Source: Takakia lepidozioides | Taxonomy: Eukaryota > Plantae > Bryophyta | Direction: 5' to 3' | DNA length: 64,000 bases | NCBI GenBank assembly: GCA_030704615.1 | Contig: CM060732.1 | Coordinates: 71,548,001 to 71,612,000 of the forward strand | Part shown: piece after piece, positions 26,705-63,288 of the stretch | Position numbering within the stretch: position 1 is the first letter of the stretch | Layout: each line of letters opens with the position of its first letter | Notes under the pieces: model-generated | What the model saw: only the letters and a program-made list of their open reading frames with translations | The model's database searches: none | Told to the model about the DNA's origin: nothing | Translations under genes and position numbers: made by a program

Positions 26705-26740
<36 letters not shown>

Positions 26741-28300: not shown

Positions 28301-28319
28301 ATTATCTCTTAATAATGGT

Positions 28320-31300
28320 ACCCACACCTTTCTATCACAAACTAAAACATCTACTAACCGTTGCTCATAAAATAAAGGCCATCATCCACCACCCTCCTAT
28401 CCCCCATTGTACAAGTATACCTACCCCCCTCCCCCGAATTAAAACAAATAAAGCCTGGATCGAGGCACTGCAACGCCTCCACAGGCCACAACACCCCCCC
28501 CCCCCCCCCCCCAATTCCTTTGATCTATCAGCAATCCTACCCCCTCAAATACCCCCCTGCGAACTCTCATTACATTGATGGGTCCCTTACTCAAACTAAT
28601 GCATGCTACGGTATCTATCACGCAGGTACGAGGAGAGGGGTGGCCCTCAGACTCCCAGGCCCTGCAACTATTCTCAGGGCCGAGCTTATGGCCATCTACG
28701 ACGCTCTCCTCCTACTCGATACATTTTCCTGCCCATACTTCATCTTCACTGACAGCCTTACCTCCTTATTTCTCATCCGCAACCACATTGCCCGTCCCTC
28801 CTCCCACCACCATCATCCTGACCGCAACCTCATCTCAGCCATTGTCAACGCCGCCGCCTCTATAAAGCATCAGTACACATACTCAAAGTACGCTCGCACA
28901 CTGGCATTCAAGGGAATGAGGAGGCCGACCTCCTCACTCAGCTCGGTGCCACCAAACTCACAGTCAAACCCACGAACGACCCTATCCACATCGCCCACCT
29001 ACCCTTTTTGGTTTATACACCCAGTTCCGAACCCTACCGCACCACGACCTTCACGCAATCTCTTGGCCACCCTCACCCGTGAAGCAAACGAACAGGCTGT
29101 AGCCTCTATCAGTCATACCAAAGTGCATATTCAAAAATGGACCCAATCCGAGGTATTACACCACAAACTCTCGAACCACTTCTGGCACACCAAAGCGACC
29201 ACTGATTCACAAATCCGCCAGACACTTAAAATCAGATATGCCCAATACATGGGTCACCAACGCAAACACATTTTCTAGCCACATCTCTTCCCATCACCTT
29301 ACTGCCCACTGTGCTCCACAACTCATAATGCACGTGATACCTGGCCGCACCTCCTGAGCCAATGCACGCATCTGGTCATCCATGGTCTTCATATCACCCG
29401 CCACAACCAAGCAGTCTGGCATCTCCACAAACTATTCACAAAAAGCGCCGATGGTACACACTCATTAACGCCGGTACCTTCCAAGGGAGTTATTAATCCA
29501 AAAGTCCGGAATTACTTAAAATTGTGTTAGACGTGTGGATTATGAGAATAATGAAAATACTTCTAGAGTCTTCCAAATCCTCCCGCCCACTGTCATCATA
29601 TTCGAAGCTTTCCGCTGCCAGCGGCCTCCACTATGATGTGCACACTAAGTGTAACACAAAGCCGTGGAGACACATCTGACAAATAATTTCTCGCTCTTCC
29701 CTTGATCTAAATAGAGATGGCGGACTACATTCACTTGGATTGAAGGAGTCGTTGCCTCTCTGTCTTATTTTCGAGCAGAACTGTTTTTCCCTGTTTTTTA
29801 GGACAGAAGCAATAGTAGTTTATTAGCCAATAGCTCCGTCTTAGAACTGTTTACAATGCCGACTTCATAACTGGGCACCTGATCCTATTGCTCCCAACAT
29901 GAGTTACTCAGTTGTTATCTCTCAAGCTTTGACATGTGATGTCTATCAACTCTTTTATCATGCACTTCACGCTTCAAACCTTATTTCTGAGATAATGTGT
30001 TTAGAAACTAATAGTGTGTCTAGATTAATATGTGTTTAGAAGCTCATATGTGTTACGGCATTAGAATAGAAACTCATAATCTTACTCCCTTGGAAGCCTG
30101 CTGCACCGAGGGTCAGGAAGCAGGAGCTTGAAAGCACGGTTGTCATTCAGAGAGCTCAGCTTTATTCTATATTCTTTTCATTCCCTTGGCACTTGCCTTG
30201 CAAATGCTAGATGTTATGTTATCGTAAAAGAATGTATCAGTAGAACTGGTTGTTGCCTCAACTTTATGCTTTTTTGTCTAGCAAGTGTCTCTTTTGGAGT
30301 GGCATCAAGATGAGAGACTAGCAAAAGAGGGAAAATGGGTGGTATGTCTAGGGTGAAGAGGTAAAGGCCGCGGATGGAGCTTGAAAAATCCTCCACAACA
30401 TCATTTTGGGTAAAGTCTGAACTCGGGGCTTCCTCTCCATCACAAGGGAGTGATAAGAAACGGCCTAGTGTTAGTGAATCAAGGTTTGGAAACAAGGCCT
30501 ATGTCGTCACCCCTGGCATGTGCATCAAGGGCTTGTCATATTTGATGCATCTACGGGAAATGAGTAAGTAATTATGAATGTCCCCAATTATTTCATGAGG
30601 GATGAAAGAACGATAATTGTCCTCATCTTTGTTCTCTTTAACATTTGCTCTTGTTTATTAATTTATATGTTCTATTGGACAAGATCTTTGATATTGTTTT
30701 GGAATAACCACACATTTATAATCGCAGTAATTCTGGTGTACGTAGTGGTTTTGTTAAATATTTTGATGGTTAAATATACTAACACCATGGATGCCATTAA
30801 GATGATGCGGCTCATGGCTACACCATCGGATCCCCTTTGCTTTGAGCGCTCTTTTGAGTATTGTATGATCAGAGTGATGTTCTCCCCCATGATGCTACAC
30901 GTACTTGCAAGTTGATGTACATTTGCATCCTGATCAGCCGAGGAGTATTGAGCTCGTATTGAGGCTAATGGCTCATGATCCAAGTTGAACCTCATGGCTC
31001 AAGAGTGAGTTTGGAAGAGGTAGCTTTGACGAGTGAGCCACTTCCATACCCAAGGTCCACTTGCACACAGTTCTTACCACCGTGCTATTATCATAGAAGA
31101 GATACATCGGCAGATCTCATTCGTGAATTGATTGTCGCCGAGTCGATTGATTAATTGAGGTTGCTAGGTGATCAGTCACTTAGATATTTCATTTATTTCA
31201 TTGTCATCATCAGTACGCAGAGCTGAAAGCACTACCACGAGACCTTACATGTCCAGCATGGCTCACTTTCACCAGAAATGTCTCCCTGGCCTATTTGCCA

Positions 31301-33553
31301 AGTGTACCACTGTAGGTGGTGCACGTGCTGTCATTGGTCTAGAGTGAGGTTGGGTAGCGAGTAAGCATGACAGACTTGGATGCTTGCTATCAAGAAGGGG
31401 GAAAGATAGTGGTGGATAGGCGATTAATGAATTCATGTCTGATGGGCTGCATGCTTGTTGATGTATATTAACCTGTCTCTGGTGATGAAGTCTGCACGAG
31501 GACCAATTGGAACTGTGACATGTAAGGCATTGCATGGCATTTAGATATGCTTACTTTTCTTATTTTGCACATAGGTATTTAGAGGTAGGGATAAGAGAAG
31601 AAACATGAACATGGGAAAATGAGAAGAGTGCCTTGTCTGGTGATTGTACTGGTACAAAGCTGTAAGTAAAACCTAGAGATGAAACTAACACCATCTTGTA
31701 TGAACTTTTAGCTATCTGAATTAGGAAGGGAGTTAGTGTGAAAAATTACAGCTGCATTCTGTGTGTAGCAGAGATCTGAATGCAAGAAACTTTCTGTAGG
31801 CTGATTGCATGGGGTGGTAGTAAATTATATGAAGGGCCTTGTGTGTGCAAATGAAAACCAGATGTTGTATCATTTCTGAACCTTAAGCAAAACCCAGAGA
31901 TGGACTACAACACTGACTGGCATGATCAACTGATGGCAACATGAACTGCCTTGCATTATGCTGGATCTTGAGAAGTAAAACCAAGAGAGTCACTCAGTGA
32001 ATTTGATTGCATGAGGTTCAGCTGTGAAAGCAGATAATGGGAGGGTGCAGTAGTGTGAGACAGTACAGTTGTGATATAAGCAACCCTGGCCTTGAGAAAG
32101 TAAAACCACTTATGACTACAAGTAAGTTGTGAGGAGAAGAGATATACTAGCGATAATCAGATCATCTACATGGTAGCTCTATGCAGTCTTATGTATGTTA
32201 AACAACCTAGGCCCTTGATAAACTGATACCAATCTTCAAATGATGGAGCTGAGCAAGAACAACCACCAAAGATTATGTTCGATTTGAGATGATGTAAGAG
32301 GTCATGAACGAAATTGTAAGTGCATTGTTTCAGATGGACATATAATGTTCAGTGACGCCATAGATTTTGCTGAAATGTGTAGGTGTGGAGCTCCAGACTG
32401 TCGAGTCTTTATTGCTAACATGAATCCTCTACTGCTGAGGAAAAGTACCGAGCATTATACAAAAACATTAAAAGAACTCAAGGTTCACAATGCCATAGAG
32501 GTGGAGAGGCTGCAAAATCTCACAAACATGCTGCATCAGAAAGACACAAAGTTGAGTGCACATGAGCAGTATGAAGTGGAGACACTCAAACAAGACCATT
32601 TCAATTTCCGTCTCATAATGAGGGAGTATCTGTTTATTAAAAAGGGCTTAACACGCAGCACAGAGCATTGAATTAGAAGATTATGGAGAAACCTGCAATC
32701 ACAGATGAGCATACCAAACCCCAAAACAAGCTGTAGGCAAATGAGTGGACCAATGGAGTTGTTTGGGAGTGAAGAATGGGAACAGAGGTTGGCTAGGGCA
32801 CTTCATAAAGAAGGACTTCCAATGAGTGTACGGGTTCTTTATAGACTCAGAGAAAATGAGGACTACACTTTGATGCCCAAATCCACAGTAGATGGCTTGT
32901 TAGAGGCACTACGATTGTACGTTAAACCAGAACCAGACAATTTACTTCTAAAACTATGCAAAGGCTGGCTTTTACCATGCACGTGCACCTAAGTACCCTG
33001 CTCATGCCCCGCCTGGCTCTGCCCGGACATACTCATTATCCAGGGACTACCGTTCAAGCCTCGCCACCTACTTCACCATCCCCGCAGCTCATCATCCACT
33101 TTATCGAAATTACATTCTGCCATGACCAATACCCCCACAATTCAATCCTCGAAAAAAGGCAAAAATACGCCCCACTCATTCTTGCAACTCATCGGCAGGG
33201 TTGGAAGACTGGCCCACTCATAGTCATCACTGCCGGAACCCGAGGCAACATACACAATGCCAATATCAATGATTTGCATGATAACTTTAAAATACCTATC
33301 CTCCCAATCCATCAATGTTTCAAAGCACCCGTTCCCTTACAGCCATCATCACCAACAAACGCCAACTCGAAGCTAGCCCCTCTAGTGCACCCTGGGTCCC
33401 CCAGGAACCCAGGGGGGTCATAGCAGCCCTCCCCTCTTTTTCTCCTTGGTTAACTGGTGTCCCACATGACACCCTTACTATTATAGGGCCCACTCCGAAA
33501 AGGGGCAGTAGCCGTTAGATGAAGTGGCTCTTAGTTACGCCAGCCACGGCCGG

Positions 33554-33586
<33 letters not shown>
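28320..33586 (+). mobile_element. Second, inverted copy of the same LINE 3' region (28320-29489 plus ~32965-33586), interrupted by ~3.5 kb of unrelated sequence; right arm
   Basis: 28320-29489 is the reverse complement of ~27063-25926, and ~32965-33586 is the reverse complement of ~25900-25255 including the (CT)n tail. Confidence 0.88.
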
Positions 33587-43105: not shown

Positions 43106-43993
43106 ATGGCCGGCGACGAGCAGCCCCCCCCTCCAGTTTCCTCAGGCGGTCCCCCTGATTGTGGCCTCCCCCCCCCCCCCCCCCCGTCTGTTTCTTTGCC
43201 TGATCCGGACGTTGTACCCCCGGCTGCACCTCCGACATTACATCCTCAATCACCTCCACTTTCATCTCCTCCGCCAGCAGTACCACCTCCACCTCCACCT
43301 CCACGTGCATGTGCCCCTCGAACCCCTAGGAGGGGTCGGCTTCGCCCTAGGTTTCCTCCCCTTCGGCTTGGGCGGCCTGAGCCGAATCCTCGCCCCCGAT
43401 GGGAAGCGCATAGGACTATGTTATTGAGGACCGTCCAACCTCGTTGTTAGGGGAATCATCTCGACCCTCCCACCCCCATCCGAGAAAATGTGGAGTTCGA
43501 GTATTGGGGGAGACGGTATGTTGTGAGAGCCGCTACAGACCCTGCTATGGGTCGGGGTTTATTCACGGTCAATGATATTGTGGTTCCTCCTCGGAGAAAC
43601 AACATGGTGGACTTGTTTCTCTACTACGGTCCATACTATACCTCCGCGGAGTTCCGTACATTACGCCTCGAAGCCCCATACATCCTACCCTACATTTTGT
43701 GTGTCAACGGACAGGATGTACGTAGACGGGGGTTGTCTCCCATTGAAATCAGATTTTGTGATGGTGACCCCGACATCTTCGACAATGTTGCTGGGCTAGT
43801 CAATAGTTCTTTTGGTCATCCTAGGAGAACCAATGTAGTATGGGACGAGCGAAGCGATGGGCATGAGAGCTTTTGTGGTCATACGTCAATATACTGTGAG
43901 AGGATGCACATGTTTGTGATGATATGTGCTAGTAGGACTATTAGGGCTGGTAGCGAACTATTTGCATCATACGAGTTTTCCCGGGATGATTGA
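43106..43993 (+). pseudogene. SET-domain (protein lysine methyltransferase-like) gene with Pro-rich N-terminus and one in-frame TAG at 43448
   Basis: MAGDEQPPPP...RC*GNHL... is in frame with ORF 43490-43993, which has MGRGLF (motif I), YYGPY, DGD...NVAGLVNSS (RFxNHS-like) and ASRTIRAGSELFASY (ELxxxY). Confidence 0.72.
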
Positions 43994-44251
43994 GACCTCC
44001 GAATACAGCGTGAGTGGGATGTGTATGATAGAAATAGGGTTCCTTTGAGACAGGGATCGCGTAGAGGGGCATTGTAGATATTCTCATGATGTACTTTGTA
44101 TACATCCGATTAATCGATTGATGTAAAAAAATTTCTTTGTTGCTCGTGTGGGTTGCAACTTTGCATATGTGATCTAAACATACTTGTGCACATGTGGACC
44201 AAATATGAGCTTGAACCAAGTTGATTCAATGGGTCATTCTAGTGTTGAACG

Positions 44252-44947
44252 TGTCGTGCGCATACATATCGCTACACAACTACATCGCTGTCCAAAACCA
44301 CACAACACATGTGCACACCACACACTAGTATACCACTAGTCCACCACTAGTCCAGCCACTAGTCCAACCACTAGGCTACAACTAGTCAGTCACTAGGCTG
44401 CCACTATGCTGCCCACTATGGCAGTCACTAGTCCACACAATGATAAAGAAGAAGAATACAAGCACAAGCTCATGCGAGCTCACAAAGCTGAAGCATAAAC
44501 TCATGCATATATAACCTCATCACTCAAATACAAGTCAAGCCAAGTGCACCCCACGCCATGGGGAATCCACACTATGGCGCCATAGCTAGGCGCGGTGAGG
44601 CTCAACTCGAGAAAGATGAGCCTCCCGCGCTTGCCGTGAAGATAACCACTCCAGGGCCTAAATCTGCCTGGACCCCTGGATTGACACTTGGGCCAATCCC
44701 AAATGTCAATATGTAAAAGCTAGCTGTTTCCTAGCTAGTTTCACACTAGTGGTAAAATAACTTGACAGCTGTCGTGCGCATACATATCGCTACACAACTA
44801 CATCGCTGTCCAAAACCACACAACACATGTGCACACCACACACTAGTATACCACTAGTCCACCACTAGTCCAACCACTAGGCTACAACTAGTCAGTCACT
44901 AGGCTGCCACTATGCTGCCCACTATGGCAGTCACTAGTCCACACAAT
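44252..44947 (-). repeat. 3' repeat block Y-gc-X-Y (sense order)
   Basis: 44252-44441 matches 44770-44947 apart from one 11-bp indel in a CCACTAGT microrepeat. 44441-44767 matches 55480-55806 (327 bp, 3 substitutions seen). Sense polypurine tract AGGGGGGCG at 44956-44948. Confidence 0.95.
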
Positions 44948-45205
44948 CGCCCCCCTAGCTGGTGCTTAGGTCCCTCTAAGTCTAGGTAGCCACACGATGT
45001 GATAGTGACCATAGCCTCACTAAGTCCTCCACCACTATCCCTACTACACTCAAACTCGATAGATCAAGAGGCCGGGTGCAAGAGTTGCCCCATCGTTAGT
45101 CGCCGTCTTGCAACCTGTGAACTTGAGCTTGGGATCTCATGTATTGACTCCTATGAGCTTGGCCTCCCATGTCTTGTTAGCTGCCTCCAGTCATGTCCAC
45201 TGCCA

Positions 45206-48200
45206 CTATCCCAAGCAGTGTGGACACAACCAATCTCTGTCAGGAACCTTCTCAAGAGGTGGTGTCACGCATCCCATATGCCAACCCCTTGAACATCGAT
45301 CACACACCAGCATGGTGGCTGCCCCTTTGGCAGACCCACAGAGCATGCACCTCAAACCTGCAGGTACCACTGCCAAGTTTGGGTCAACTCTGCCATCGAC
45401 ATTGGGAAGGTGACATGGCGCACAATTACGCACATGGTCCTTCCAAGTCATGCCATCCCGACCCTCCAAGATCAGGACCCCTGAGGGCAACACCTCTCGA
45501 ACCCTCATAATAACACGCCCTGCAGTAACATCCAGAGTCGTAAGAGCAGTCTGCTGCAAATAAACATAGTCACCAGGGCTAAACCTCCGAACCCCAGGAC
45601 GATATCCTCCACCACGTATAGTGGCATACCTCAACGTATCACGGTGCTGTGCAATGGCAAGGTTCTCAAAAGCCATGGGCATGACTTTCTTGAACAACTC
45701 TGCACGCTGATTACATGCACGTACCCACACGTCCGGATCGTCAAGGTTAAGGACTTGAGCAGTGTCCCTACGAATGGCTGCAGGCAAATCCGGCTCTCGG
45801 CCAAAGAGAAGGAAATATGGTGAGAAGGAGGCAAGTGATGCTTGTTTGCTGAACCTGTAGCCCATGGCTAACCAAGGAACCTGAAGATCCCAATCTCCTA
45901 GGTGTCCCTTCTGCAAGCCATACTTGCGCAAACCCCTCTTCACCGTCTGAACAACTCTCTCTGCTAAGCCATCGGCCTCAGGATGATCCCGAGAAGTGGT
46001 GCGGTGGTCTATCAAGGCTTTATCACACAAAGCCTGAAACTCCCCCAAGAACTCTCTCCTTTGGTCCGTGAGTACCTCAGCTGGAGCACCAAATCGGCTA
46101 AGCACACGATCCAAGAATGCATACGCAGCCCCCTCACTAGCCTTGTCAGGCAATGGAACCAACTCAATCCACTTGGAGAAGTGCTCCACCATCACCAACA
46201 CATATCTGTGGTGGCGCATAGTCAGTAGCAACGGTCCTGCGAAGTCAAGACTCCACCTGTAGCCCAATCCCATGATTGGTAAAGGATGCAACTGTGGTGT
46301 AGGGGCGTTGAATGAAGCACGCACCCTGTCACACACCATGCACCTAGCCACGAACTGTTGCACCTCTGTATGCATACCACGCCACCAATACTGCCCCTGC
46401 AGTAAACTGTGAGTGCGTCGCACTCCAAAATGCCCCAACTCCTCATGGGCATGCCGCACTAACCGTGCACGCTGTGTGGGGTGAGGCACAATCCTTACCC
46501 GACCATCCTCCCACACTCGAAGTAGGTGTATCCCCTCCCACTTGAACCTCTTGGCTCGTTGCAGGATCCGATCCCTCTCCCTGGCAGTCACAATGGCTGC
46601 TGTGTCTCCCGTGCGGAGGTAGTCCAACACAGCCGAATCCTCATCATCACTAGCCTCAGGGTCCTCAGACACTCCATCTACAGTCATCCCTGTTGTAGGT
46701 CCAATCTGACCTCCCGATGCCAAGATACACAAAAATGCAGATGCGTGCCATCCCGGCACCATCTCCTCGTCCGTCTCACCATGCCACCGAGCTCCAGTGT
46801 CATCCTGCTGGCTCATGCATGGATTGCGACTCAATCCATCCGCATCCCGATTGACCAAACCCGGTCGATGCACAACCTGAAAGTCATACTCCTGGAGTAT
46901 AAGTGCCCACCGTGCAAGCTTCCCCGTAAGCTTGTCTGACTCCATCAACCACTTGAGTGGCTGGTGATCCGTGACAAGGGTGAAAAGATTGCCGTATAGA
47001 TAGCACCTGAAGTGTGCCACGGCCCACACTGCAGCTAAGCACTCTCCCTCATATGAGCTGTACTTAGCCTCTGCAGCGTTGTTCGAGCGGCTAGCGTAAG
47101 CCACTACGAACTCTCTTCCCTCATCATCCACCTGTGTGAGTACCGCTCCAAGCCCCAGCATGCTCCAATCCGTATGCAGCTGAAAGGGACGCCCCCTGAT
47201 AGGTCGTCTCAAGATAGGCGCCGAGGTCAACCTCGCCTTGAGCTCTTGAAAAGCTCGTTCCTGCTCATCTTCCCACTGCCACTCCTGGTCCACCTTGGTC
47301 AGCTTGGTTAGAGCCTTTGCAATGGTACTAAATCCCTTGACAAACCGTCTATAATAGTTTGCCAACCCCATGAAAGCTCGAACTCGGCTCACATCCGTGG
47401 GGCGTGGAATTTGTGCAATGGCCTCTACCTTAGTCTGCTGTACCCCCAATCCTCCAGGATATATCATGTGACCCAGATACTCAATCTGGTTGTGGAAAAA
47501 CTTGCACTTCCCCGGATGCAACTTCAATCCGTGCGCTCTCAAGCGCTCCAATACCACCTGAAGGTGTCTCTCATGCTCCTCCATCGTAACACTAAAGATG
47601 ATGATGTCATCTATGTAGCACCGAGCAAAGTCCACCCCTGCTAGAATCTTATCCATGACTCTCTGAAACTCTGCAGGAGCATTCTTAAGCCCAAATGGTA
47701 AGAACCGCCACTGATATAGGCAATCCTTGCCGTGCTCATTGATCCCCCAGAATGCCGTCTTCTGCTTGTCCGCCTCCTTGATTGGCAACTGGTGATATCC
47801 GGATCGTAAATCCAAAGTGCTAAAGGCCTTAGCATGCCCGATGGCATCAAAGATCTCCTCTGGTGTTGGCATGGCATACTTATCGGACTTGGTCTGACGA
47901 TTTACAGGCCGGTAATCACCGCACATACGTCTCTTCGTCCAATTGCCATAGACATCCTTCTTGGCTGGCATCACTGTGGCTGAAGCATACTCTCCACCAG
48001 AGAGCTCCACCAAACCTGCCTCCCAGAGATCTTGAGTCCTCATCTGAATCAAAGACCTCTCCATGTCAATGTATCTATAGGGTCTCCGAAAGATTGGCGT
48101 GTCAGTGGCCAACTCAATACGGATCTCTTGACCCTTCAGTGCTCCCAAGTCCTTCAAACTGAAGGCAAAGCAATTCCTGTAAGCCCTCAGGAACCGCCGT

Positions 48201-48316
48201 ATACGTCGTCTCTCTCCTCCGGTGACAATGGGTCCAATGTCAGGCTCCCAATTGTCCTCCGTAACTGCAACCTTAAGTCCAGTGGGCTTAGAGGTAGAGG
48301 ACGCGTCCAGTGGTTG
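45206..48316 (-). CDS. Pol: reverse transcriptase, RNase H, integrase, PHD finger (uninterrupted frame)
   Basis: RMCGDYRPVN, LDLRSGYHQ, LPFGLKNAP, YIDD; LHTDWS...YEGECLA...TDHQPL; HEELGH...CMVC, WSLDFAG, LTDQ, DGLAER; C-terminal CMLC...LVCDRC...WHMGC...WLCPHC (C4HC3). The frame is open from the codon after TAG 48319-48317. Confidence 0.96.
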   Translation of the reverse strand, partial: QPLDASSTSKPTGLKVAVTEDNWEPDIGPIVTGGERRRIRRFLRAYRNCFAFSLKDLGALKGQEIRIELATDTPIFRRPYRYIDMERSLIQMRTQDLWEAGLVELSGGEYASATVMPAKKDVYGNWTKRRMCGDYRPVNRQTKSDKYAMPTPEEIFDAIGHAKAFSTLDLRSGYHQLPIKEADKQKTAFWGINEHGKDCLYQWRFLPFGLKNAPAEFQRVMDKILAGVDFARCYIDDIIIFSVTMEEHERHLQVVLERLRAHGLKLHPGKCKFFHNQIEYLGHMIYPGGLGVQQTKVEAIAQIPRPTDVSRVRAFMGLANYYRRFVKGFSTIAKALTKLTKVDQEWQWEDEQERAFQELKARLTSAPILRRPIRGRPFQLHTDWSMLGLGAVLTQVDDEGREFVVAYASRSNNAAEAKYSSYEGECLAAVWAVAHFRCYLYGNLFTLVTDHQPLKWLMESDKLTGKLARWALILQEYDFQVVHRPGLVNRDADGLSRNPCMSQQDDTGARWHGETDEEMVPGWHASAFLCILASGGQIGPTTGMTVDGVSEDPEASDDEDSAVLDYLRTGDTAAIVTARERDRILQRAKRFKWEGIHLLRVWEDGRVRIVPHPTQRARLVRHAHEELGHFGVRRTHSLLQGQYWWRGMHTEVQQFVARCMVCDRVRASFNAPTPQLHPLPIMGLGYRWSLDFAGPLLLTMRHHRYVLVMVEHFSKWIELVPLPDKASEGAAYAFLDRVLSRFGAPAEVLTDQRREFLGEFQALCDKALIDHRTTSRDHPEADGLAERVVQTVKRGLRKYGLQKGHLGDWDLQVPWLAMGYRFSKQASLASFSPYFLLFGREPDLPAAIRRDTAQVLNLDDPDVWVRACNQRAELFKKVMPMAFENLAIAQHRDTLRYATIRGGGYRPGVRRFSPGDYVYLQQTALTTLDVTAGRVIMRVREVLPSGVLILEGRDGMTWKDHVRNCAPCHLPNVDGRVDPNLAVVPAGLRCMLCGSAKGAATMLVCDRCSRGWHMGCVTPPLEKVPDRDWLCPHCLG

Positions 48317-49620
48317 CTATGTTGCAACCTCTTGAGCAGTACTCCCTGCCTGCTCAGTCAATGACAAGGCCTCATCCTGCCCCATCATCTCATCCTTGAG
48401 GACCTCCTCAACCCGAGAAGAATCCCCAACCTCATCCATCACAGCCGCCTTGGCTGCCAACTCCCTCTGAACCTCGAGCACCTCCCACGTGTGCCATGGA
48501 TGCATGCACCCCGTGGTCCTCACATGCTCGCCCCCACTCACTGCCTGTACCGTCTCGGTAGGCAGAGAGACCATTGAGGGAAGTGTACTCCGCACTCTGC
48601 GTTGCTCAGCCAGAGCCAAGCTGATAATCCAGGTCAAGCAATTGAGATCCATTGCTTGCCCCAACACTTGACGACGTGATGCCTCAGAAAGAGACGACAC
48701 CGCCGTGGTACCAGTGGTAAAACCCATTGCCCGCTCACGCTCGTCAGCATTAGGCTCCACTAACTGCTGCAACTGAGCATCCCACAGGAGGCCAGGTCCA
48801 CTATCCCGGAAAGCATGCGATCCTGGGAAGCTGAGCAGTGTAGGTAATGCTGCTCGTGGTTGACCCACCTTGTTGACCACTGCCAAAGGCGAACGGTCAT
48901 CGTGTCTCACACGTTGAGACTGCCTCCCTGTGTCCAGAATGTTATCCACTGTGAGATGTGCTGGCCGCTGCACCCCATCAAATGCACGCTTGAGCAGTGC
49001 GGGTGGCATCAAGTTAGTCCACCATAGCCGTGGACGATGAGCCCGTGACCCCACTGTAGCTGCATCTAGCAACACTGCTGACCCAAGCCACGACCGGACT
49101 TGATGCACACTGGCCATCACCCTGGCCCAAGAATCGCCCATCAGTGGCACATTCTCCAAGATGTATGCTGGAGATACAGCTTGATGAAGCTGCAAGTGGC
49201 GCAAAACCCGCACCATCTCCCAAAACAGACCCGACCTCGAGTCTCGCAATCCATTGCCATGCCCGGCTGATGAATGCCCTTGGCAGGGCCAACCTGCCAC
49301 TACCAGATCAATGGAGCCAACCCGCTCCAAATCCTGCGCCCCCAGCAACGAAATGTCTCCTGGCAAGGCCTGCTGATATCCACGAATTGCAGACACCGAC
49401 AACAACTCAGGGTATCGCTGCACCAACTGAGCAACATGGCGAAGTGAAACGCGTCATGCAGTCTCATCCCTCTCCACATACAGGTAACGCCGAACTCGTA
49501 AACCTGCTTGTAACACAGCAGCCAATCCGGTGCTGATCCCGCCAAACAAGTCCAGAAGACAAATGCCTTCATCCGGATACTGCCACACAATAGGTGTGGT
49601 GTCCAATGGAGACAATTGAG
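48317..49620 (-). CDS. C5-cytosine DNA methyltransferase domain, DNMT3-like, within the polyprotein (one premature TGA at 49454)
   Basis: Motif I LLDLFGGISTGL, II YLYVE, IV DLVVAGWPCQ, SGLFWE, VI YILENV, VIII AHRPRLWWTN, IX ERERAMGF, X RRQVLGQAM, in canonical DNMT3 order. Confidence 0.93.
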
Positions 49621-52270
49621 GTGGTCTGGTGCAATCCCCACACTCTCTCCTCTCCTGACGGTACAAAAGCCTCCACCCAGGCTTGTTGCACCTGTCGATC
49701 AGCATCCTGCTGCAAATCCTTGCTCGTGCCCCACAATGGAGTCTGAGCAACCATGGTAGGCAACTCCGCCATACCATACATGTCATCCTGCTCTCCCGGA
49801 GGTGGTACATCCTCTGAATGACCATTGCCCTCAAGCAACTCTCTAAGCCAACTCACTGCCGCTGTGAATGCTGCTAGTGTCGGCATCTTGCCTCGCTGGG
49901 CAACCGCAACTCCTCCTATGAACGTCACAGGGAGCTGCACACGCCGGCCCTCCCCTGACTGCCATGCAGGCCTATAGGAAGCTGACTCTTCCCAAAAATC
50001 CAGGGTGAAGCCCATGGGGTACAACACTGCCCCACCAACCAGGACATCGTATGAGACTGCGTCTGTCACAATGGCCTTGGCTCGCATCACTGAGCCATCT
50101 GTAGGGTGATCCGGTCGTAGTCTGATAGCCAACTCATGCCGTGTCATGCCCCGACCCTGCTCCGATCCTCCCAGAGACATCTGTATCTGGAAAGGACAAG
50201 GCTCCATATCCGCCTCCGTGAGGCCCAAGCCTGCTATAGCAGCTCTGCCCAGCATCAATGGCTGAGCTCCCGAGTCCAACAAGACCCGCAGTGGCCGGTA
50301 CCTCTTGCCTGCCGGTCCACTCAAACAGAAAATGCCATCCTGGTTGTCTAACATGACAACTCCAGGTGTCACCATGGCGCGCTCAATGGCTGGCCTAGCT
50401 GGCAGCTCCATCAACCTGGCAGCTGCAGCTTGCCATGGCGCCGCCGTGGCAGTCTTGACCCTCAAATCCGAGGATCCATCCGGCACTACACCTCCCACTA
50501 TCTCCGCAGAAGATGAAGTAACCTCCCCACTCTCACAGAGTGTAGCTGCCAGCCTGAACACCTCAGCTGGTCTTATCCCCGGCGTCGCAATCATGGTAGC
50601 CGAGAACAATGGAGCCTGGCACACAGATGTGGCCGCTCCTAACAGCACACTAGCTGCCGTAGCCTTGGCAACACTAGGTAGTGGTGCTACCCGTGTAGCT
50701 CTCCCCAATGGCATAGTAACCTCCGCCTCGGTAACAGTCGGGCGAGAACTAGGTGCCATGGATGGCGTCGACACTGTCTCCGCCAATGTGAATGACTGAG
50801 GAAGCCTAGCCTGACGGCTTGCCTCCCCACGCTGTGGATCCAACTCCACCTCTGCACCTCGTGGCTCAGGAACTCGTGCTGCTCCTCGAGTCACGGCTGC
50901 AGCAGACTCCACCTGCACTAGTGGTAGTGCTGCTCCACACATGAATCCCATGCCTCCCATATCTCCTCCCTCAGGAGCAGGAGGTGGACCATCCGGCCTT
51001 AGAGCCGGTACCACCTGAGCTGTAGCCATGGCAGCGAGCCTCTGCTCTAGCTGCTGAAGCCGCTTGGTCATGCCTTGGTCAACACCCTGACCTCCGCGTC
51101 CTTGGCCACGTTGAGCTTGCCCTTGGCCTGCACCTCGTGGCTGGCCACCTCGTCCTCTCTGGGCTGCTCCACCTCGCCCCCAGCCACCATTGTTCCCTTG
51201 GAACTGGCCTGGGTGCAACTCAGGATGCAAACCATAACACTGGGCCTCTCCATGCCCGTGCTTGCCACAATGCCCACACTGCAACTGTGCAGGCTATGCA
51301 TGTGCCAGCCCTTTGCCTCCCTCTAGGCAATCCTTCTTGGCATGGGGTCCTCCACATGTCTAGCACACCACATCCGCCCGTTGTTGGCCAGCAAATGAAG
51401 GGAGAGACCCCTGCATCTGAGGTCCTCTCTGCCCTTCCCTGAGCTTCACCTGAGCCCCCTTGTTGCCTTGAGCACGTTGAGGTAGTGGTTGGCTAGGAGC
51501 ACCACTACCCCGTGGTGTCTCCTTAGCAAATCCCACCATGACCACTCGTTCCTCCACCATGTTGAGCTCTATCCGCTCTGCCAGCAAAAACACATTTGCT
51601 AAGGTGGGTTGGGCCACTTGTAGGAGAGTTGCATCCTGCACCCTTCTCCTCAGCTCCTTGTCCAATATCCCATACCAGAATTGGACTGCCTGAGCTTCCG
51701 TAACCCCTTGGGTTACATTTATCAAGCGCCTCATGCGAGTGAAAGCTCTCGGTCGGCTTCCGTTGGAACTCTTGCAAGCTCCGCAACTTCTCTGTCCTCA
51801 CCCCTTGGTAGTTCCCTCTCAACTCTTCGAAGAACTCCACAACAGGGTTGAAGGCAGGCACGGGTGCTAGTGCTGGTGCGGTAGTGGCTTGGGTGGACGT
51901 CGTAGCTACTGTACCACCAGTCCCACTGCTACTTGCTGAAGCTGCCGGTGCAGCGGCATGTGTAGCCACTGCCCTCGTGGCTCTAGTGCCCCTAGTGATG
52001 GAGATATAGTCGGGTGACCAGTACATCCTCCACTCCTCGATCTCAACCTCATGCCCCCGCCTGAACTCATGGTAATCATCCATAGGCGGCCCCTCAAGGT
52101 GCTGAAACAGCCCTTTCCATGCCATGAAAGACGTAAATAGTTGTGGATTGCGCATTTGCTGCAAATCACACCAACTATCAAACTCTTGGATAAAATCATC
52201 CAACTCGATGGTGCCCACCGCCCCAGAGTACCTTCGTGGCCCCTTGGTAGCTCCATACATCTCCTCCATT
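49620..52270 (-). pseudogene. Gag (two CCHC knuckles) and aspartic protease, disrupted
   Basis: RYSGAVGTIELDDFIQEFDSWC, knuckles C*TCGGPHAKKDC and CGHCGKHGHGEAQC, protease VLLDSGAQ...YDVLVGG. Frameshifts near 51745 and 49650 and two in-frame TAGs near 51360 and 51294. Confidence 0.88.
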
Positions 52271-52769
52271 GTGTCCCACAACAATGGCAAAGAAACAACT
52301 TGCACCGCCGGTATGAGTCCTCCTGATTCACAATCCGAATCAGAACCTTCCGTGGAAGACACAGGAGGTGAAGGTGGCCTAAACCGTACACCTCGTCTCG
52401 TGTACCCACTAGTATCGCTAGTGCTCGAACCGGCACTGTCCCCAGCAACTAGTGGCACCTCCGTGTTGACACTCAACCGATCATGAACATGTCCCTAACC
52501 CCCTCTCCACAAGGTAACCGGGTAGAGAACCTGTTGCGGCTTATGGTTTGGAATACTAAGTTCCTAACATAGCCTACACCTGTACTTGCATGACCATGGG
52601 AATATCATGAAGATACTCCTCAAACCGCCCTCCACGAGCTTCAAAATTCGGCCTTCCAGACCACATGCCAGTCCTTAGGCAGTCCACCAGTGCCTCCACG
52701 AGTCAGCACAGGCCGTCCACAGGTCAACACGGGCCACCACAGACCAGCACAGGCCCACACAGCTCACTG

Positions 52770-53950
52770 GTCACAGCCGTCACAGTCCCACAGGCCACTG
52801 GGCACAGCCTGTCACAGCCCCAAAGCCTCAGGCACGGCCTGTCACAGCCCCTCACAACGCGTCACAGCCTCAAAGGCCTCAGGCACGGCCCGTCACAGCC
52901 CCTCACAGCCCCTCATAGCCCCAAAGGCCTCAGGCACGGCCCGTCACAGCCCCTCACAGCCCCTCACAGCCTGTCACAGCCCCAAAGGCCTCAGGCACGG
53001 CCTGTCACAGCCCCTCACAACGCGTCACAGCCTCAAAGGCCTCAGGCACGGCCCGTCACAGCCCCTCACAGCCCCTCACAGCCCCAAAGGCCTCAGGCAC
53101 GGCCCGTCACAGCCCCTCACAGCCCGTCACAGCCTCAAAGGCCTCAGGCACGGCCTGTCACAGCCCCTCACAGCCGTCACAGCCTCAAAGGCCTCAGGCA
53201 CGGCCTGTCACAGCCCCTCACAGCCCGTCACAGCCTCAAAGGCCTCAGGCACGGCCTGTCACAGCCCCTCACAGCCCCAAAGGCCTCAGGCACGGCCTAT
53301 CACAGCCCCTCACAGCCCGTCACAGCCCCAAAGGCCATGGGCACGGCCTGTCACAGCCCCTCACAGCCCGTCACAGCCTCAAAGGCCTCAGGCACGGCCT
53401 GTCACAGCCCCTCACAGCCCCTCACAGCCCCAAAGGCCTCAGGCACGGCCCGTCACAGCCCATCACAGCCCAAAGGCCTCAGGCACAGCCCGTCACAGCC
53501 CGTCACAGCCCCAAAGGCCATGGGCACGGCCTGTCACAGCCCCTCACAGCCCGTCACAGCCTCAAAGGCCTCAGGCACGGCCTGTCACAGCCCCTCACAG
53601 CCCGTCACAGCCTCAAAGGCCACTGGGCACAGCCCGTCACAGCCCCACACAGCCCGTCACAGCCCCACAGGGCACAGGGCACAGCCTGTCACAGCCCGTC
53701 ACAGCCCCAAAGGCCACTGGGCACAGCCTGTCACAGCCTGACACAGCCCGTCACAGCCCCACAGGGCACAGGGCACAGCCTGTCACAGCCCATCACAGCC
53801 CATCACAGCCTGTCACAGCCCGTCACAGCCCCACAGGCCACAGGGCACAGCCTGTCACAGCCCATCACAGCCCATCACAGCCTGTCACAGCTTGCGACAG
53901 CCCGTCACAGCCCGTCACAGCTCGCTACAGCCTGTCACAGCCCCACACAT
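52770..53950. repeat. GC-rich minisatellite (TCACAGCCC core) in the Gypsy leader
   Basis: Nested 10-12-bp units (CCCGTCACAG, CCCCTCACAG) combined with AAAGGCCTCAGGCACGG into variable higher-order units. Confidence 0.95.
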
Positions 53951-55479
53951 GGCCGCTCTGGCAGTTTAGCCATTTCTCCAAGGGGTTTAGCCACGCCAAG
54001 CTAGGGTTTGTGTCTCTTGGACTCTAGGCTTCTTTCCACCGAGCTATGGTGGCTGTGAGGAAATCAGCAAGGTATCCTTGCTCTTTCGGCTCCCACACAC
54101 CACCATAGTAGCCCTAAGCCATGAGGTGGTTGCCACAAACCAAGCCTTCTTTCTCACTTAGCCTCCCCAAACACGCCACTAAACTCAATGGCAAACAACC
54201 AAGCCCTGCTGGTTCCCAGCCCTTGTGAGCACTCATTCAAGCACTCTCATTGGCCATAGCATCTGTCTTAGAGCCTATTCCAGCCCTCTACACCTGTTGC
54301 TTCAAGAGTTGTGTTCCCTTCAAGCTTGAAGTTGAAACCCCAACTCACATAGGCCCTACAAGTGCTTTTCTTTCACTCCAAGTGGAAACCAGCCCTAGAC
54401 CTTCCGTTCTAGCTCTCTAAGGCTTGAAAACAAGAGCCTCAATGGGCTGAAGGCATGCTCCATACATGCCCCACTCTCACCATAAGAGAATCAGCTCCTT
54501 TGCTTCATTTCTTGCACCCACAAACCTGAAATTACAAGCTTCAGCAGGCTGAAAGCATGCTCTACATGCCCTACAGGGTAACCAGCCCCTTCCTTCCTTT
54601 CTTGCACTCCCACACCTAAAAGTGCAAGCCTTCACCAGGCTGATAACATGCTCCACACATACATTGCCCTCACATAAGGGAAGTCAGCCCTTCCCTCTTC
54701 CTTGCTTGCTCTCCAAGCTTGAAGATGGAAGCTTCAATGAGCTGAATACATGCTCCACACATGCAACCTCTTCACACAAGAGATATCAGCCCCCTATCTT
54801 GGCTCCTTGGCTCTTTGATGCTCTCTAAGACAAGACTAAGCACTCCACAGCCTTTGCCAAGCTCCTGAAACCCTAAGGCTTACATTTCCAGCCACAAGAC
54901 ACTTCTCTTGTGGTGCAAGAGCTCTTCTTCCAAGCTCTGAAACCCTAGGTGCACATTCCATGGCCTTGCCGCACCTCTTAGCTCCTGTTCCAGCCCTGCT
55001 CTTGCCATGACAAGAGCCCTCTCAATGCTGAAGCTCGAGATTGAAACCCAATCTCACCATACTCCACAAAGTGCATTGATTTGCCCCAAGCCAAATCAAC
55101 CCTTTCGCTTGGTCTTGCAATCCTTCACACAATGGAAGCTCGCATTCCCAGGTCCAGTTCTCAACTTTGCCACCAAAGCCACTATAACCTGCACTTGACT
55201 GGTCCTCTTCCCAATCGTGCTTGCTCATGCATGTACACAATCTGAAACCATCAAGGTGCTCTGGAATTACCTGCAGCATGGTGCTTTCATCTCTGAAGCT
55301 GAAGATCGAATGCCAAGGTCTACCACCTCGTAACCCACATCGCCTCCGCTTCTAACAACCAAGAGCTCCATGGTGCTCCTTGCATAACAACTTGGTTTCT
55401 CTCATTCTCAAGCAAAAACCACAAGTGTTATAACTAACTCGTATCTGGCACTCACAGATACGAGCTGATCTTTCTCGAG

Positions 55480-55806
55480 TGATAAAGAAGAAGAATACAA
55501 GCACAAGCTCATGCGAGCTCACAAAGCTGAAGCATAAACTCATGCATATATAACCTCATCACTCAAATACAAGTCAAGCCAAGTGCACCCCACGCCATGG
55601 GGAATCCACACTACGGCGCCATAGCTAGGCGCGGTGAGGCTCAACTCGAGAAAGATGAGCCTCCCGCGCTTGCCGTGAAGATAACCACTCCAGGGCCTAA
55701 ATCTGTCTGGACCCCTGGATTGACACTTGGGCCAATCCCAAATGTCAATATGTAAAAGCTAACTGTTTCCTAGCTAGTTTCACACTAGTGGTAAAATAAC
55801 TTGACA
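55480..55806 (-). repeat. 5' terminal repeat X of the Gypsy element
   Basis: 327-bp near-identical copy of 44441-44767; sense begins TGTCAAG and ends TTTATCA. Confidence 0.95.
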
Positions 55807-56613
55807 AACGCAGCTACGTATCATAGAGACGGAAAATTGCGTTTTTTTTTTAATTCCATTTTCAAGCCATATGCTTAATGATAGCATATGCAATGTGCGT
55901 GCAAAATTTGGGAGTAAACAAAAGTCATTTGGACCCATAACCAGATTTTGTTCTCTCATTTGCACTCCAAAGTTGAGTTATTTTCAACTTTATGCACTCT
56001 TCATAAAGAGTTTTGCAAAAGTGACCCTAGAAATACACTTATTTTTTTTCCATTTTTTTTTTGTCCAATGTTTTGCATGGATGTAGTGGTGCAAAAGCCC
56101 GATGTCATACAACAGAATAGAGCTAAAAATAAAATCATTACGCCCCTCAAAACCGCAATCATATATTTTCTAAATGCAAATATTTATTTTAAATTCATTT
56201 AAATTCGATTTAATTCAAAATTGGTGCAAGGGTGAGTGCGTCGTTGGGGAGGCAAATGTTTTTTTTTTTTTTTGTTTTTTTGTTTTTTTTTTAAAAAAAA
56301 TTAATTAAAATTTTTTTTCTGTTGGATCTTTGTACAGGTGTTGCACACATATTTAAGCACATGTAAGAAAAAATGAAGCTTGAGCCACATCCGTTTGTTG
56401 GGTGCAATGGCATGAGAGGATTTTTTTTCACATTAATAAACAAAAATTGGTTGATAGGGTGAATGCGTTATTGGGGGGCAAATGATTTTGTTTGGGTTTG
56501 AAACTTTGCATATGTGTATGTTGCGCACATACATGTAATTATTGAATGACATATTTGATGCACACACACATTGAAGGTTGTTGTTTGCATTTCGCTTATA
56601 ATGAAGTGTATGG

Positions 56614-57310
56614 TTGCAAGGACACATTATAATATATGTCCATATGTTCATTTGTTCGTATCAGGATTTTGTCCATTCCTTCCCGGTCCTTTCTCTTGGC
56701 ACCCCATCCGAAAACAACCCAAGTACATTAGGCGGGAGCCGTAGGCGAGACGCCGCCCCCACGGTACCGGACGATGATAAGGATGACAGTGACAGTGACA
56801 GTGACAGTGACAACAACAATGAGCATGGAATTAACCAGGAGGATGTGCAAGCCATGGAGGATCTCTTAATGCATTATCTGGGCGCTGATGCATCCCATGA
56901 AGAGGGAACCCGACCAATCGACGATCCTGAAATGACCCCCTCAAATGACATGGAGAGGGAGGCGAGAACTCCCTTGTACGAAGGGGCGAAAATGAGTCGA
57001 TTTTCAACAATCTTACTTTTGCTCAATCTTCAAATTCGATTTGGCATAAGTAATGTTGGGATGTCTGCCATAATGCGAACTATTGCAAACTATATCCTTG
57101 CTCCACATTTGAAATCCAAGATGCCACGGTCGCGGAAAGAGGCGTGCGACATCTTGGACTCTGTGGGGATGGGCTATAAGTTTTTTTATGCATGTCCATG
57201 TGATAAAACCCTATACTACGGAGAGGATTCGCGTCTCACCAAGTGCCCAAAGTGCAAGAAAGACAGATATCGGGATGATGTCCAAGGGAAAAAAGTACCA
57301 CGCAAGGTAT
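56614..57310 (+). pseudogene. CACTA/EnSpm transposase (Tnp2/Transposase_21) N-terminal fragment
   Basis: EARTPLYEGAKMSRFSTILLLLNL...MPRSRKEA...GMGYKFFYACPCDKTLYYG...KCPKCKKDRY...VPRKV, followed by a GT donor; no downstream exon found. Confidence 0.88.
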
Positions 57311-57471
57311 AAGCGTCATTCCCCCTCGCATGGAGATTACTTTCTTTAATCTTCTCAATGTATGTAAAGTGTATTCCACAAAGTTTAGGGTTTAGAGAGT
57401 AATACTCATGCAAGATCTGATTGTGGTTTTGGAAGGAGTGAGTGAGGAGTGGAAGGAGCGACGTTTTGCTG

Positions 57472-57704
57472 GTGAGGACCACGGGGTGTAGACATCCATG
57501 ACACACATGGGAGGTGCTCGAGGTTCAGAGGGAGTTGGCAGCCAAGGCGGCTGTGATGGATGAGGTTGGGGATTCTTCTCGGGTTGAGGAGGTCCTCAAG
57601 GATGAGATGATTGGGCAGGATGAGGCCTTGTCATTGACTGAGCAGGTAGGGAATACTGCTCAAGAGGTTGCAACATAGCAACCACTGGACACGTCCTCTA
57701 CCTC
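57472..57704 (+). mobile_element. 233-bp diverged fragment of the same Gypsy family (DNMT-RT linker)
   Basis: Colinear with the reverse complement of 48291-48523, with scattered substitutions. Confidence 0.93.
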
Positions 57705-60632: not shown

Positions 60633-60689
60633 CTATGGGAGTTTTGAGCATGCATACTGGCCCTGTTAGGCCCAATTTCACATAGAAAA

Positions 60690-62990
60690 ACAAGCACGAA
60701 TGGGGCTCAAAACAGTGTGCATTGCCGCACACTGTTTGAGCTTCCAATAAGGGTTGGATTCAACCTGCCAGAGTGGCCCCAGGGGACCGATTTTCAAATC
60801 AAAAGCAATCACATAAGGAAGCTCAAACAGTGTGCGTTGCCGCACACTGTTTGAGCTTCCAATAAAGGTTGGATTCAACCTGCCAAAGTGGCCCTAGGAG
60901 ACCGATTTTCACATCAAAATCAATCACGTAAGGAAGCTTAAACAGTGTGCGTTGCCGCACACTGTTTGAGCTTGCAATAAGGTGTGATTTTAATATGGCA
61001 TAGTGGCCATAAGTGGCCAATTTGAAATAAAAGAAAAGGCAGTGAAGGGGGCTCAAACAGTGTGCGTCGGCGCACACTGTTTGAGCTTCCATTTTGGAGT
61101 CGAATGAACTTGCCAGACTAGCCGTAGGTGCACAATTTCCATATCCATAAACAAGCAAATCAGGGGGCTCAAACTGTGTGCGTTGACGCACACCGTTTGG
61201 GCTGCCAGGTAAGTGTGAATTGAACCTGACAGAGATGACCTTTGTGGTCGATTCTAAAATGCCAGCTGCCAGGTAAGTGTGCATTGACGCTCAAAGAGAT
61301 GCCCTATGTGGCCAATTTTCAGATAAAAAAATTAATGACATGGTGGGCTGGAACAGTGTGCGTTGACGCACACTGTTTGAGCTGCCAGGTAAGTCTGCAT
61401 TGAACCTCAAATACATGCCCTATGTGGCCGATTTTCACGTGAAAAAAACAATGACAAGTTGGCTCAAACAGTGTGCGTTGACACACACTGTTTGAGCTGC
61501 CACGTAAGTGTGTATTGAAACTCAAAGAGATGCCCTATGTGGCCTATTTTCAGATAAAAAAAACAATGACATGGTGGGCTGGAACAGTGTGCATTGACGC
61601 ACACTCTTTGAGCTGCTAGGTAAGTCTGCATTGAACCTCAAATACATGCCCTATGTGGCCGATTTTCACATGAAAAAAACAATGACAAGTTGGGCTCAAA
61701 CAGTGTGCGTTGACGCACACTGTTTGAGCTGCCACGTAAGTGTGCATTGAAGCTCAAATAGATGCCATATGTGGCCGATTTTCAGATTAAAAAAATAATG
61801 ACATGGTGGACTCGAACAGTGTGCGTTGACGCACACTGCTGGAGCTGCCACGTAAGTGTGCATTAAAGCTCAAAGAGATGCCCTATGTGGCCGATTTTCA
61901 AAAAAATAAAATAAAAAATAAATAAAATAAAAAACATGGTTGGCTGGAACAGTGTGCGTTGACGCACACTATTTGAGCTGCCAGGTAAGTCTGCATTGAA
62001 CCTCAAATACATGCCCTATGTGGCCAATTTTCACATGAAAAAAACAATGACAAGTTGGGCTCAAACAGTGTGCGTTGACGCACACTGTTTGAGCTGCCAC
62101 GTAAGTGTGTATTGAAGCTCAAAGAGATGCCCTATGTGGCCGATTATCAGGAAAAAAAAAAAAAAAAAAAAAAAAACATGGATGGCTGCAACAGTGTGCG
62201 TTGACGCACACTGTTTGAGCTGCCACGTAAGTCTGCATTGAACCTCAAATACATGCCCTATGTGGCCGATTTTCACATGAAAAAAATAAAGACATGTTGG
62301 GGTCAAACAGTGTGCGTTGACGCACACTGTTTGAGCTGCCACGTAAGTGTGTATTGAGGCTCAAAGAGATGCCATATGTGGCCGATTTTCATATAAAAAA
62401 AAATAATGACATGGTGGGCTGGAACAGTGTGCGTTGACGCACACTATTTGAGCTGCCAGGTAAGTCTGCATTGAACCTCAAATACATGCCCTATGTGGCC
62501 AATTTTCACATGAAAAAAACAATGACAAGTTGGGCTCAAACAGTGTGCGTTGACGCACACTATTTGAGCTGCCACGTAAGTGTGCATTGAAGCTCAAAGA
62601 GATGCCTTATGTGGCCGATTTTCAGATTAAAAATATAATGACATGGTGGGCTCAAACAGTGTGCATTGACGCACGCTGCTGGAGCTACCACGTAAGTGTG
62701 CATTGAAGCTCAAAGAGATGCCCTATGTGGCCGATTTTCACATGAAAAAAATAATGACAAGGTGGGCTCAAATAGTGTGCGTTGACGCACACTGCTGGAG
62801 CTGCCAGGTAAGTGTGCATTGAACAAGAAAGAGATGCCCTATGAGGCCGATTTCCAAATGAAAAAAAGAATGACAAGGTGGGCTCAAACAGTGTGCGTTG
62901 ACGCACACTGCTAGAGCTGCCAGGTAAGTGTGCATTGAAACTTAAAGAGATACCCTATGAGGCTGATTCCAAATGAAAAAAACAATGACA
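60690..62990. repeat. About 116-bp tandem repeat, ~19 units, each with a 34-bp palindrome
   Basis: CTCAAACAGTGTGCGT-TG-ACGCACACTGTTTGAG recurs (for example near 60707, 60822, 61463, 61695, 62060, 62884), and the intervening sequence is also repeated. Confidence 0.96.
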
Positions 62991-63288
62991 AGATGCACAA
63001 CACAACCTCATTACATTCGGGGTCTTCCTGTTTACTGCTCTCTAGGGTTGTTGTCGTCTTTCCATAATTGATGGTTTCATGTCATGTTTAGGGTTTGTTT
63101 TTCATCCAAATACAACACGGCTTCTTGTGGCTTCTTGTCACCCTAAACAGTTTTTCTGATTGGTGTCTCTCAGTGTGGTTGTCTGCGAAGTTCGGTGCAT
63201 GTCATTCCTACATCCTTTGCAGGCATCGCCCACAGTCTTTGGGTTAGTGCTAACCTTATTGACCTCAGTTTGGTCAGTGGAGGAAAAC

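Follow-up and report, generated by a model that had tools for sequence, protein, structure and literature searches.

Split direct repeats in the order A1-ORFs-B1-A2-B2 (ORF, open reading frame) are associated with retrotransposons that use a tyrosine recombinase, TOC1 among them. The same order, with the element ends reproduced as an internal junction, is given for PAT, Ngaro, VIPER and TATE (excerpts of PMC6681497). A Gypsy element, KnitGypsy-Dnmt3 of Klebsormidium nitens, was reported by de Mendoza et al. in 2018 to combine Gypsy domains with DIRS-like repeats in the order A-coding-B-A-B (excerpts of PMC5890265). Here we describe an element on the minus strand of a 64,000-nucleotide stretch of the Takakia lepidozioides assembly GCA_030704615.1 (contig CM060732.1, positions 71,548,001 to 71,612,000; the window in what follows) that, like KnitGypsy-Dnmt3, has a Gypsy pol with a Dnmt3-like domain and A-ORFs-B-A-B repeats. 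The element and its relatives represent a real, clade-wide variant of Gypsy integration. We lean slightly toward a still broader reading, in which an ancient Gypsy clade with members in green algae, liverworts and mosses no longer attaches by its cDNA ends but by a site within the long terminal repeat (LTR), and integrates only via end-joined circles opened at a fixed palindrome; its integrase would be a natural, sequence-specific cutter of palindromes in circular donors, and the Dnmt3-like enzyme might label the one of the two sites that is to be cut.

An initial annotation of the window had named no described lineage of this kind; the layout had in fact been stated for KnitGypsy-Dnmt3, in the legend of Figure 4c of PMC5890265. 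The available portion of that paper gives no palindrome, target site duplication (TSD), self-priming, X-ORFs-Y form or mechanism, and treats the element as specific to K. nitens, whereas the clade considered here spans liverwort-like, moss-like and alga-like sequences. In sense the window element runs X1-PBS-ORFs-PPT-Y1-GC-X2-Y2 (PBS, primer binding site; PPT, polypurine tract) with ends TGTC and GACA. X1 (327 nt) and the PBS are followed by a long 5′ region with a tandem array, by gag-like, protease, methyltransferase, reverse transcriptase (RT), RNase H, integrase and PHD finger segments, and then by the PPT, Y1 (178 nt), GC, X2 and Y2. The repeats and junctions, in window positions, are:

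44248-44251, plus strand: left TSD copy, AACG, from repeat comparison and from public contigs with a single AACG at the empty site
44252-44441, minus strand: Y2, the terminal Y copy, ending in GACA, which is the 3′ end of the element in sense; equal to Y1 except for a 12-nt indel
44441-44767, minus strand: X2, the internal X copy, with 3 mismatches in 327 nt relative to X1; the X/Y joint lies at about 44441
44764-44773, no strand: palindrome GACA-GC-TGTC, the element ends abutted across the 2-bp spacer GC (44768-44769); the candidate integrase cleavage site
44770-44947, minus strand: Y1, beginning right after the PPT; putatively the proximal U3
44948-44956, minus strand: PPT, AGGGGGGCG in sense, with a G-run at the equivalent place in relatives
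55480-55806, minus strand: X1, the terminal X copy, starting with TGTC, which is the 5′ end of the element in sense; from repeat comparison
55807-55810, plus strand: right TSD copy, AACG, from repeat comparison and public contigs

In this arrangement X2 would comprise the distal U3, R and U5. Repeat comparison and the empty site described below bear out the X-ORFs-PPT-Y-GC-X-Y order, the TGTC and GACA ends and the AACG duplication that the initial annotation had read from the letters. The two X copies differ at only the three positions listed and the two Y copies show no substitution over 178 nt, their single indel falling within a short tandem run; this near identity indicates that the insertion is young. 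The copy is nonetheless coding-broken, with in-frame stops (including in the methyltransferase) and frame changes. GACAGCTGTC, the palindrome at 44764-44773, occurs nowhere else in the window.

Public contigs of the same species contain the empty site, that is, left flank, one AACG and right flank, in nine cases from run X1 and in two from run X5, which belongs to another study, and the element boundaries and TSD are therefore exact. Among the matches listed (24 of about 524), the sequences beyond the GACA end differ from one another in at least 20 contigs of run X4 (agreement 0.39), and contigs leaving the other end of X agree at 0.97, 0.97 and 0.90 (at least 15, 10 and 9 contigs) and run into the PBS. 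Short contigs bridge the X/Y joint (run X1 record 4; run X4 record 17) and the palindrome (run X5 record 30); no listed piece of the public contigs covers the entire 1.1-kb stretch of this locus.

The relatives were the best 80 of 522 matches, all on metagenome contigs from the part of the collection that was scanned, and their layouts were assigned by self-comparison and by mapping of X and Y references. A layout was obtained for 47 of the 80 loci, with two more showing a 5′ X alone. X follows the ORFs in 24 of the 80, and in 22 of these a second Y comes after it (Y-X-Y), 7 being complete at both ends; a further 23 end in a single Y, 9 of them complete at both ends as X-ORFs-Y. None of the 19 five-prime ends, each with at least 158 nt of flank, has a Y before X. 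Ordinary LTRs and the alternative permutation are thus both absent from these ends, and the ordinary copies that the initial annotation had named as the mark of a one-off insertion are absent at all 19. Flanks are shared by no two of 66 loci, which makes all of them separate insertions. The layout recurs in three repeat families whose X and Y sequences are unrelated between families and which sit on two deep tree branches enclosing Klebsormidium and Closterium proteins (FastTree, 110 of 114 rows; L011, L018, L067 and L077 were left out for too little coverage). The window element and the split-repeat loci share a clade with four pol proteins from Klebsormidium (support 0.905), and the window element is most likely kin of KnitGypsy-Dnmt3, the Klebsormidium proteins in the tree being unconfirmed as the published element.

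It is hardly credible, in view of these data, that the locus arose from one aberrant insertion or that an ordinary LTR element was misassembled. Such an origin would sit well with the broken coding region and with the lack of a read or contig across the whole locus, but it is contradicted by independent loci that repeat the layout, 7 of them complete, 15 partial and none ordinary, by the empty site and the differing flanks beyond GACA in contigs of the window's own species, and by the layout reported in Klebsormidium (PMC5890265, in part).

Two loci, L007 and L023, looked like circles and were not counted, as overlapping contig ends also arise from collapsed repeats. At L072:5075-5144 the terminal GACA adjoins sequence like the Y of another family of the same clade, perhaps through insertion into a relative. 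An alignment scan of viral contigs gave 8 distant loci, none with the exact palindrome, and a single-protein scan of them gave no matches.

The palindrome is kept while the repeats around it diverge. The internal junctions have a 2-nt spacer in 23 of 23 cases; 4 are exact, and 22 differ from GACAGCTGTC, if at all, only by C>T or G>A, as would be expected from decay of methyl-cytosine. In 11 of 69 loci the exact 10-mer follows pol at a distance of no more than 3.1 kb (162 kb of sequence), and it occurs not once in the other 734 kb, as against a score of 1 for the best of 89 control palindromes. The loci that carry it include relatives at 36-46% identity, and in several distant alga-like loci it lies 40-130 nt after a G-rich tract. 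The ends expected from reverse transcription are not conserved: in the largest family Y starts with ATAC and X ends near CAAT, without TG...CA. The proposal that Y-gc-X reads as a TG...CA LTR thus stands for the window and fails for the relatives, and the palindromic internal copy of the ends, also read in the initial annotation, is found in both. An exact 4-bp TSD is present at 8 of 16 loci, compared with 3 of 240 cross-pairs, and a 5- or 6-bp one at 0 of 16; together with the 22 Y-X-Y loci this supports, at independent sites, the layout, ends and TSD length anticipated for other copies. A central CG is present in 0 of 9 exact TSDs, the window's included, unlike the NCGN target preference given for Phygy (excerpts of PMC6317226). 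We are highly confident that the integrase uses the internal palindrome.

Three observations concern palindrome-like sequences elsewhere. L054:15159-15232 holds the exact palindrome twice, 64 nt apart and with a G-run before each, and the contig ends just after. GACA-CG-TGTC, upstream in the same locus, occurs amid unrelated sequence and was put down to chance. Short CGACAC-like repeats form the end of Y in the largest family (L015, L026, L070; alignment columns 145-183), with two copies ending at the upstream repeat and one cut short there; these repeats are possible integrase-binding repeats or alternative cut sites.

The start of reverse transcription may involve two further features:

55468-55480, minus strand: PBS, immediately downstream of X1 in sense and a self-priming candidate; 13 bp pair in Watson-Crick fashion with a stretch within X (0 of 300 shuffles)
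55644-55656, minus strand: predicted self-primer, X positions 151-163, from pairing and fold; likely near the 5′ end of the transcript

The helix between them is present in both the minimum free energy and the centroid fold of the predicted RNA, and in three families with different sequences the PBS pairs with X at about position 150-180 over 13, 17 and 13 bp (0 of 300 shuffles); in one family there is a TATA-like motif inside X, about 30 nt upstream. The element likely self-primes, judging from these pairings, in which case established LTR replication would allow X1 to hold the promoter, R and U5, and Y-gc-X to act as a functional LTR. A perfect 10-bp hairpin (55441-55467) directly follows the PBS in sense.

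How Y2 arises was addressed through variants common to Y1 and Y2. Raw Y1/Y2 distance is uninformative because decay swamps the signal, the own partner ranking first in 2 of 14 copies, and a test based on diagnostic transversions and indels was therefore used. In 11 elements of one family these are shared in 169 of 187 cells (null mean 123, maximum 161 in 10,000 shuffles), which points to Y2 being refreshed from Y1. The X/Y joint, in contrast to the fixed palindrome, is variable, and 15 copies of a single family show no fewer than 7 forms. These include 1- and 2-base losses, 1-base gains, a duplication of 16 nt (L020), a deletion that removes most of X (L028) and, in L044, an extension by 135 nt in which the PPT is included and which starts from a PPT-like site. 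Such variants, which resemble end-joined 2-LTR junctions as the initial annotation had suggested for the window's own joint, argue for a joint made anew; end-joined 2-LTR circles are known products in plants (PMC7197481, in part).

Much of this bears on a replication route like that of the tyrosine-recombinase elements, in which RNA would run into Y2, the joint would be inherited, Y-gc-X would splint the circle and the integrase would open it. The A1-ORFs-B1-A2-B2 order is that of PAT, Ngaro and VIPER (PMC6681497, in part), and the route could favor one junction, so accounting for the one-sided outcome discussed below. We nevertheless regard it as improbable: the PBS boundary marks the end of X2 and the PPT boundary the start of Y2, closely related copies have different joints, one of them with a PPT-containing extension, the PPT and self-priming PBS are kept, and Y2 tracks Y1 within an element.

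The best explanation, and one that we consider reasonably likely, is that a DDE integrase cuts the LTR-internal palindrome in end-joined, probably circular, cDNA and does not work from the ends left by reverse transcription. The transcript would start inside X1 and self-prime on the PBS, as suggested by the pairing in three families. Ordinary LTR reverse transcription would then give Y-gc-X / ORFs / Y-gc-X with ends set by PPT and PBS, consistent with the observed boundaries and with the variants common to Y1 and Y2, and host end-joining would fuse these natural ends, leaving the heterogeneous X/Y joint. A host end-joining circularization step has been put forward for LTR replication in Drosophila (preprint, 10.1101/2022.09.25.509424, in part). 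Finally, the integrase would nick each strand of the GACA-GC-TGTC copy in the 5′ LTR after CA and produce CA-3′OH ends with 2-nt 5′ overhangs, followed by insertion with a 4-bp stagger; the ends, the loss of the spacer and the TSD are seen directly, and the chemistry is what they would imply. A 1-LTR circle, likewise opened at this palindrome, is the likely source of X-ORFs-Y.

The position of Y behind X2 means that the natural ends were joined, either before integration (a circle) or after it (a split intasome). That cDNA joining precedes integration is, in our view, probable. In the other case there would be no free circle: the integrase would cut the 5′ LTR palindrome of linear cDNA and insert both halves, a short Y and a long X-ORFs-Y-X, together, with the host joining the natural cDNA ends later in the chromosome. 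This predicts the same ends, TSD and variable joint, and the large joint lesions of L028 and L044 fit break repair. Cutting at both palindromes would, moreover, give X-ORFs-Y with no extra steps, in keeping with the numbers of the two forms (24 loci with X after the ORFs and 23 ending in a single Y, about equally common) and with their terminal branch lengths, whose medians of 0.13 and 0.16 (p 0.54; L078 omitted as a duplicate of L080) do not separate the two forms by age. It would, however, leave a chromosome break at every insertion, it does not by itself explain the absence of X-Y-X-ORFs-Y any better, and end-joined 2-LTR circles are known to form in plants; we judge it unlikely. X-ORFs-Y itself may come from a 1-LTR circle, a double cut or later Y1/Y2 recombination and, having no 3′ R, would be a dead end.

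Returning to end-joined cDNA opened at the palindrome, several points weigh against it, the small share of public-contig matches from which the loose ends were counted among them. Both LTR copies carry the palindrome, yet the product X-Y-gc-X-ORFs-Y is seen 0 times against 8 of the other kind, the 8 being metagenome loci with X1 and an internal junction (7 complete and L019; binomial p 0.008). From a free 2-LTR circle both products would be expected equally often, which leaves the simple model incomplete, and the circle opened within its LTR that the initial annotation envisaged fits the ends, spacer and joint and leaves the missing product unaccounted for. Our best guess for the use of the 5′ copy only is a timing bias, in which, once second-strand transfer has taken place, the 5′ LTR would be duplex long before the displaced 3′ LTR is copied; more speculatively, the element's own enzyme may methylate the site. 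Both the circular intermediate and the palindrome cleavage are read from sequence patterns. Inexact TSDs make up 8 of the 16, three with one or two transitions, four worse (L017, L031, L056, L079) and one with a truncated end (L070). The self-priming match is clear (0 of 300 shuffles) in 6 of 20 X copies and weak or decayed in the rest, and some one-base joint variants may be later mutations. As to sampling, 33 of the 80 loci are without a layout, being short, decayed or distant; the 46 classified loci belong to three repeat families from metagenomes; in the distant alga-like loci the palindrome alone is seen, the full layout being unreadable; and public runs X1, X2 and X4 are one sample, which may be the window's source.

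With Ty3/Gypsy elements the window element shares the domain order, a DDE integrase with H2C2, a PPT before the 3′ repeat and a PBS after the 5′ repeat, a 4-bp TSD, and TG and CA at the inserted ends. Unlike them, it has no complete LTR at both ends, nor is one found at the 19 five-prime ends of its relatives; its integrated ends are LTR-internal and its reverse-transcription ends are joined inside the element. It is therefore Gypsy by its proteins and not by its structure. From PAT, Ngaro, VIPER and TATE it differs in its DDE integrase, with no tyrosine recombinase found in the 14 of 24 ORFs scanned, in making a TSD and in keeping PPT and PBS. The inferred cleavage has its nearest parallel in foamy virus integrase, which in vitro cuts a palindromic LTR-LTR junction after CA on both strands (PMC1180852), and a similar cleavage has been claimed for HIV-1 integrase (excerpts of PMC1905944 and PMC4372172); cutting of a palindrome after CA on both strands with 2-nt 5′ overhangs would be common to all three. 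The viral palindrome, however, is the joint of the natural ends and its product an ordinary provirus, whereas in the window's clade the palindrome is templated within U3 and every scored copy has a permuted layout. A PBS complementary to the element's own 5′ region and not to a tRNA, predicted computationally here, is given for Tf1/sushi and Tcn1 chromoviruses (excerpts of PMC6317226), from which the window element is set apart by its split repeats and by a PHD finger in place of the chromodomain.

The layout is barely in print and the mechanism apparently not: a full-text literature search, which reached little of the subscription literature and no Repbase Reports, did not find an LTR-internal attachment palindrome or such a mechanism. 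If true, the proposal amounts to a clade-wide exception to the rule whereby the cDNA of LTR elements is integrated in linear form by its ends and circles are by-products, and to a DDE element that has converged on the layout of tyrosine-recombinase elements. That circle junctions serve as integration substrates is an old, disputed idea. It is discussed in PMC1180852 and in the accessible part of PMC4372172, and it becomes testable with an element that seemingly depends on it and a defined 10-bp substrate. The plant Gypsy survey of Neumann et al. (2019) required 5′ and 3′ LTRs with TSDs (PMC6317226, in part) and would for that reason have missed such elements; LTR finders with the same demand would miss or mis-cut the clade. 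Gene insertion could benefit from an integrase able to use a circular donor that carries a short palindrome.

The coding region and the array upstream of it comprise:

45206-48316, minus strand: pol frame of 1036 aa with RT, RNase H, integrase (H2C2 and DDE core) and a C-terminal PHD finger, from Pfam
48317-49852, minus strand: Dnmt3-like C5 cytosine methyltransferase, PF00145 E 5.3e-13, in frame with pol
49569-51293, minus strand: zinc knuckle and aspartic protease region with an LLDSGA motif, in another frame; the Asp_protease_2 match is weak (E 0.055, below cut-off)
51360-52494, minus strand: gag-like region, broken into pieces over several frames and without a significant Pfam match; putatively gag from its position
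52728-53949, no strand: units of about 51 nt repeated in tandem within the long 5′ untranslated region, from self-comparison

The order protease, RT, RNase H, integrase is that of Ty3/Gypsy, with the protease match weak. The integrase matches PF17921 (H2C2 zinc) and PF00665 (core), its best solved-structure matches being Ty3 Gag-Pol 7q5b (E 2.9e-18) and prototype foamy virus (PFV) integrase, and its D, D and E align with those of Ty3 integrase; by these residues it is of the DDE type, as initially proposed. No tyrosine recombinase was matched in the 14 of 24 ORFs (at least 100 aa) that were scanned, the other 10 being at most 132 aa or frames of the tandem array. The methyltransferase has its best solved-structure matches in DNMT3A (E 2.6e-8), and a Dnmt3-related domain within pol is also present in most relatives with enough upstream DNA; it precedes RT in the window element and closer relatives, and lies between RNase H and integrase in the distant L029, L030, L041, L054 and L058. 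Among named organisms, the nearest relatives come from liverworts, namely Calypogeia, Riccia and Marchantia (65-78% over partial alignments; another Calypogeia protein, 45%), followed by Klebsormidium, Closterium, Tetraselmis and Tetrabaena. The initial annotation, right as to layout, had missed the Dnmt3-like domain, the PHD finger, the self-priming PBS and the X-ORFs-Y form, which accounts for about half of the relatives.

Around the element, 57472-57704 is a 233-nt element piece (equivalent to 48291-48523, the methyltransferase-to-RT linker) in opposite orientation and at 96% identity, lying in neighboring DNA. The flanks 43451-43993 and 56605-57312 belong to a host repeat with empty sites in several contigs; it has a SET-like ORF (Pfam SET E 0.023, below cut-off) and an ORF that, by a motif and with no Pfam match, resembles the start of a CACTA-type transposase. 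Further away are an RT fragment of Copia type (RVT_2 E 4e-45) and inverted copies of a fragment from an element that bears RNase H (24318-24980, 25255-29489 and 32966-33582), and two long tandem arrays lie outside the element at 20691-22436 and 60652-62998.

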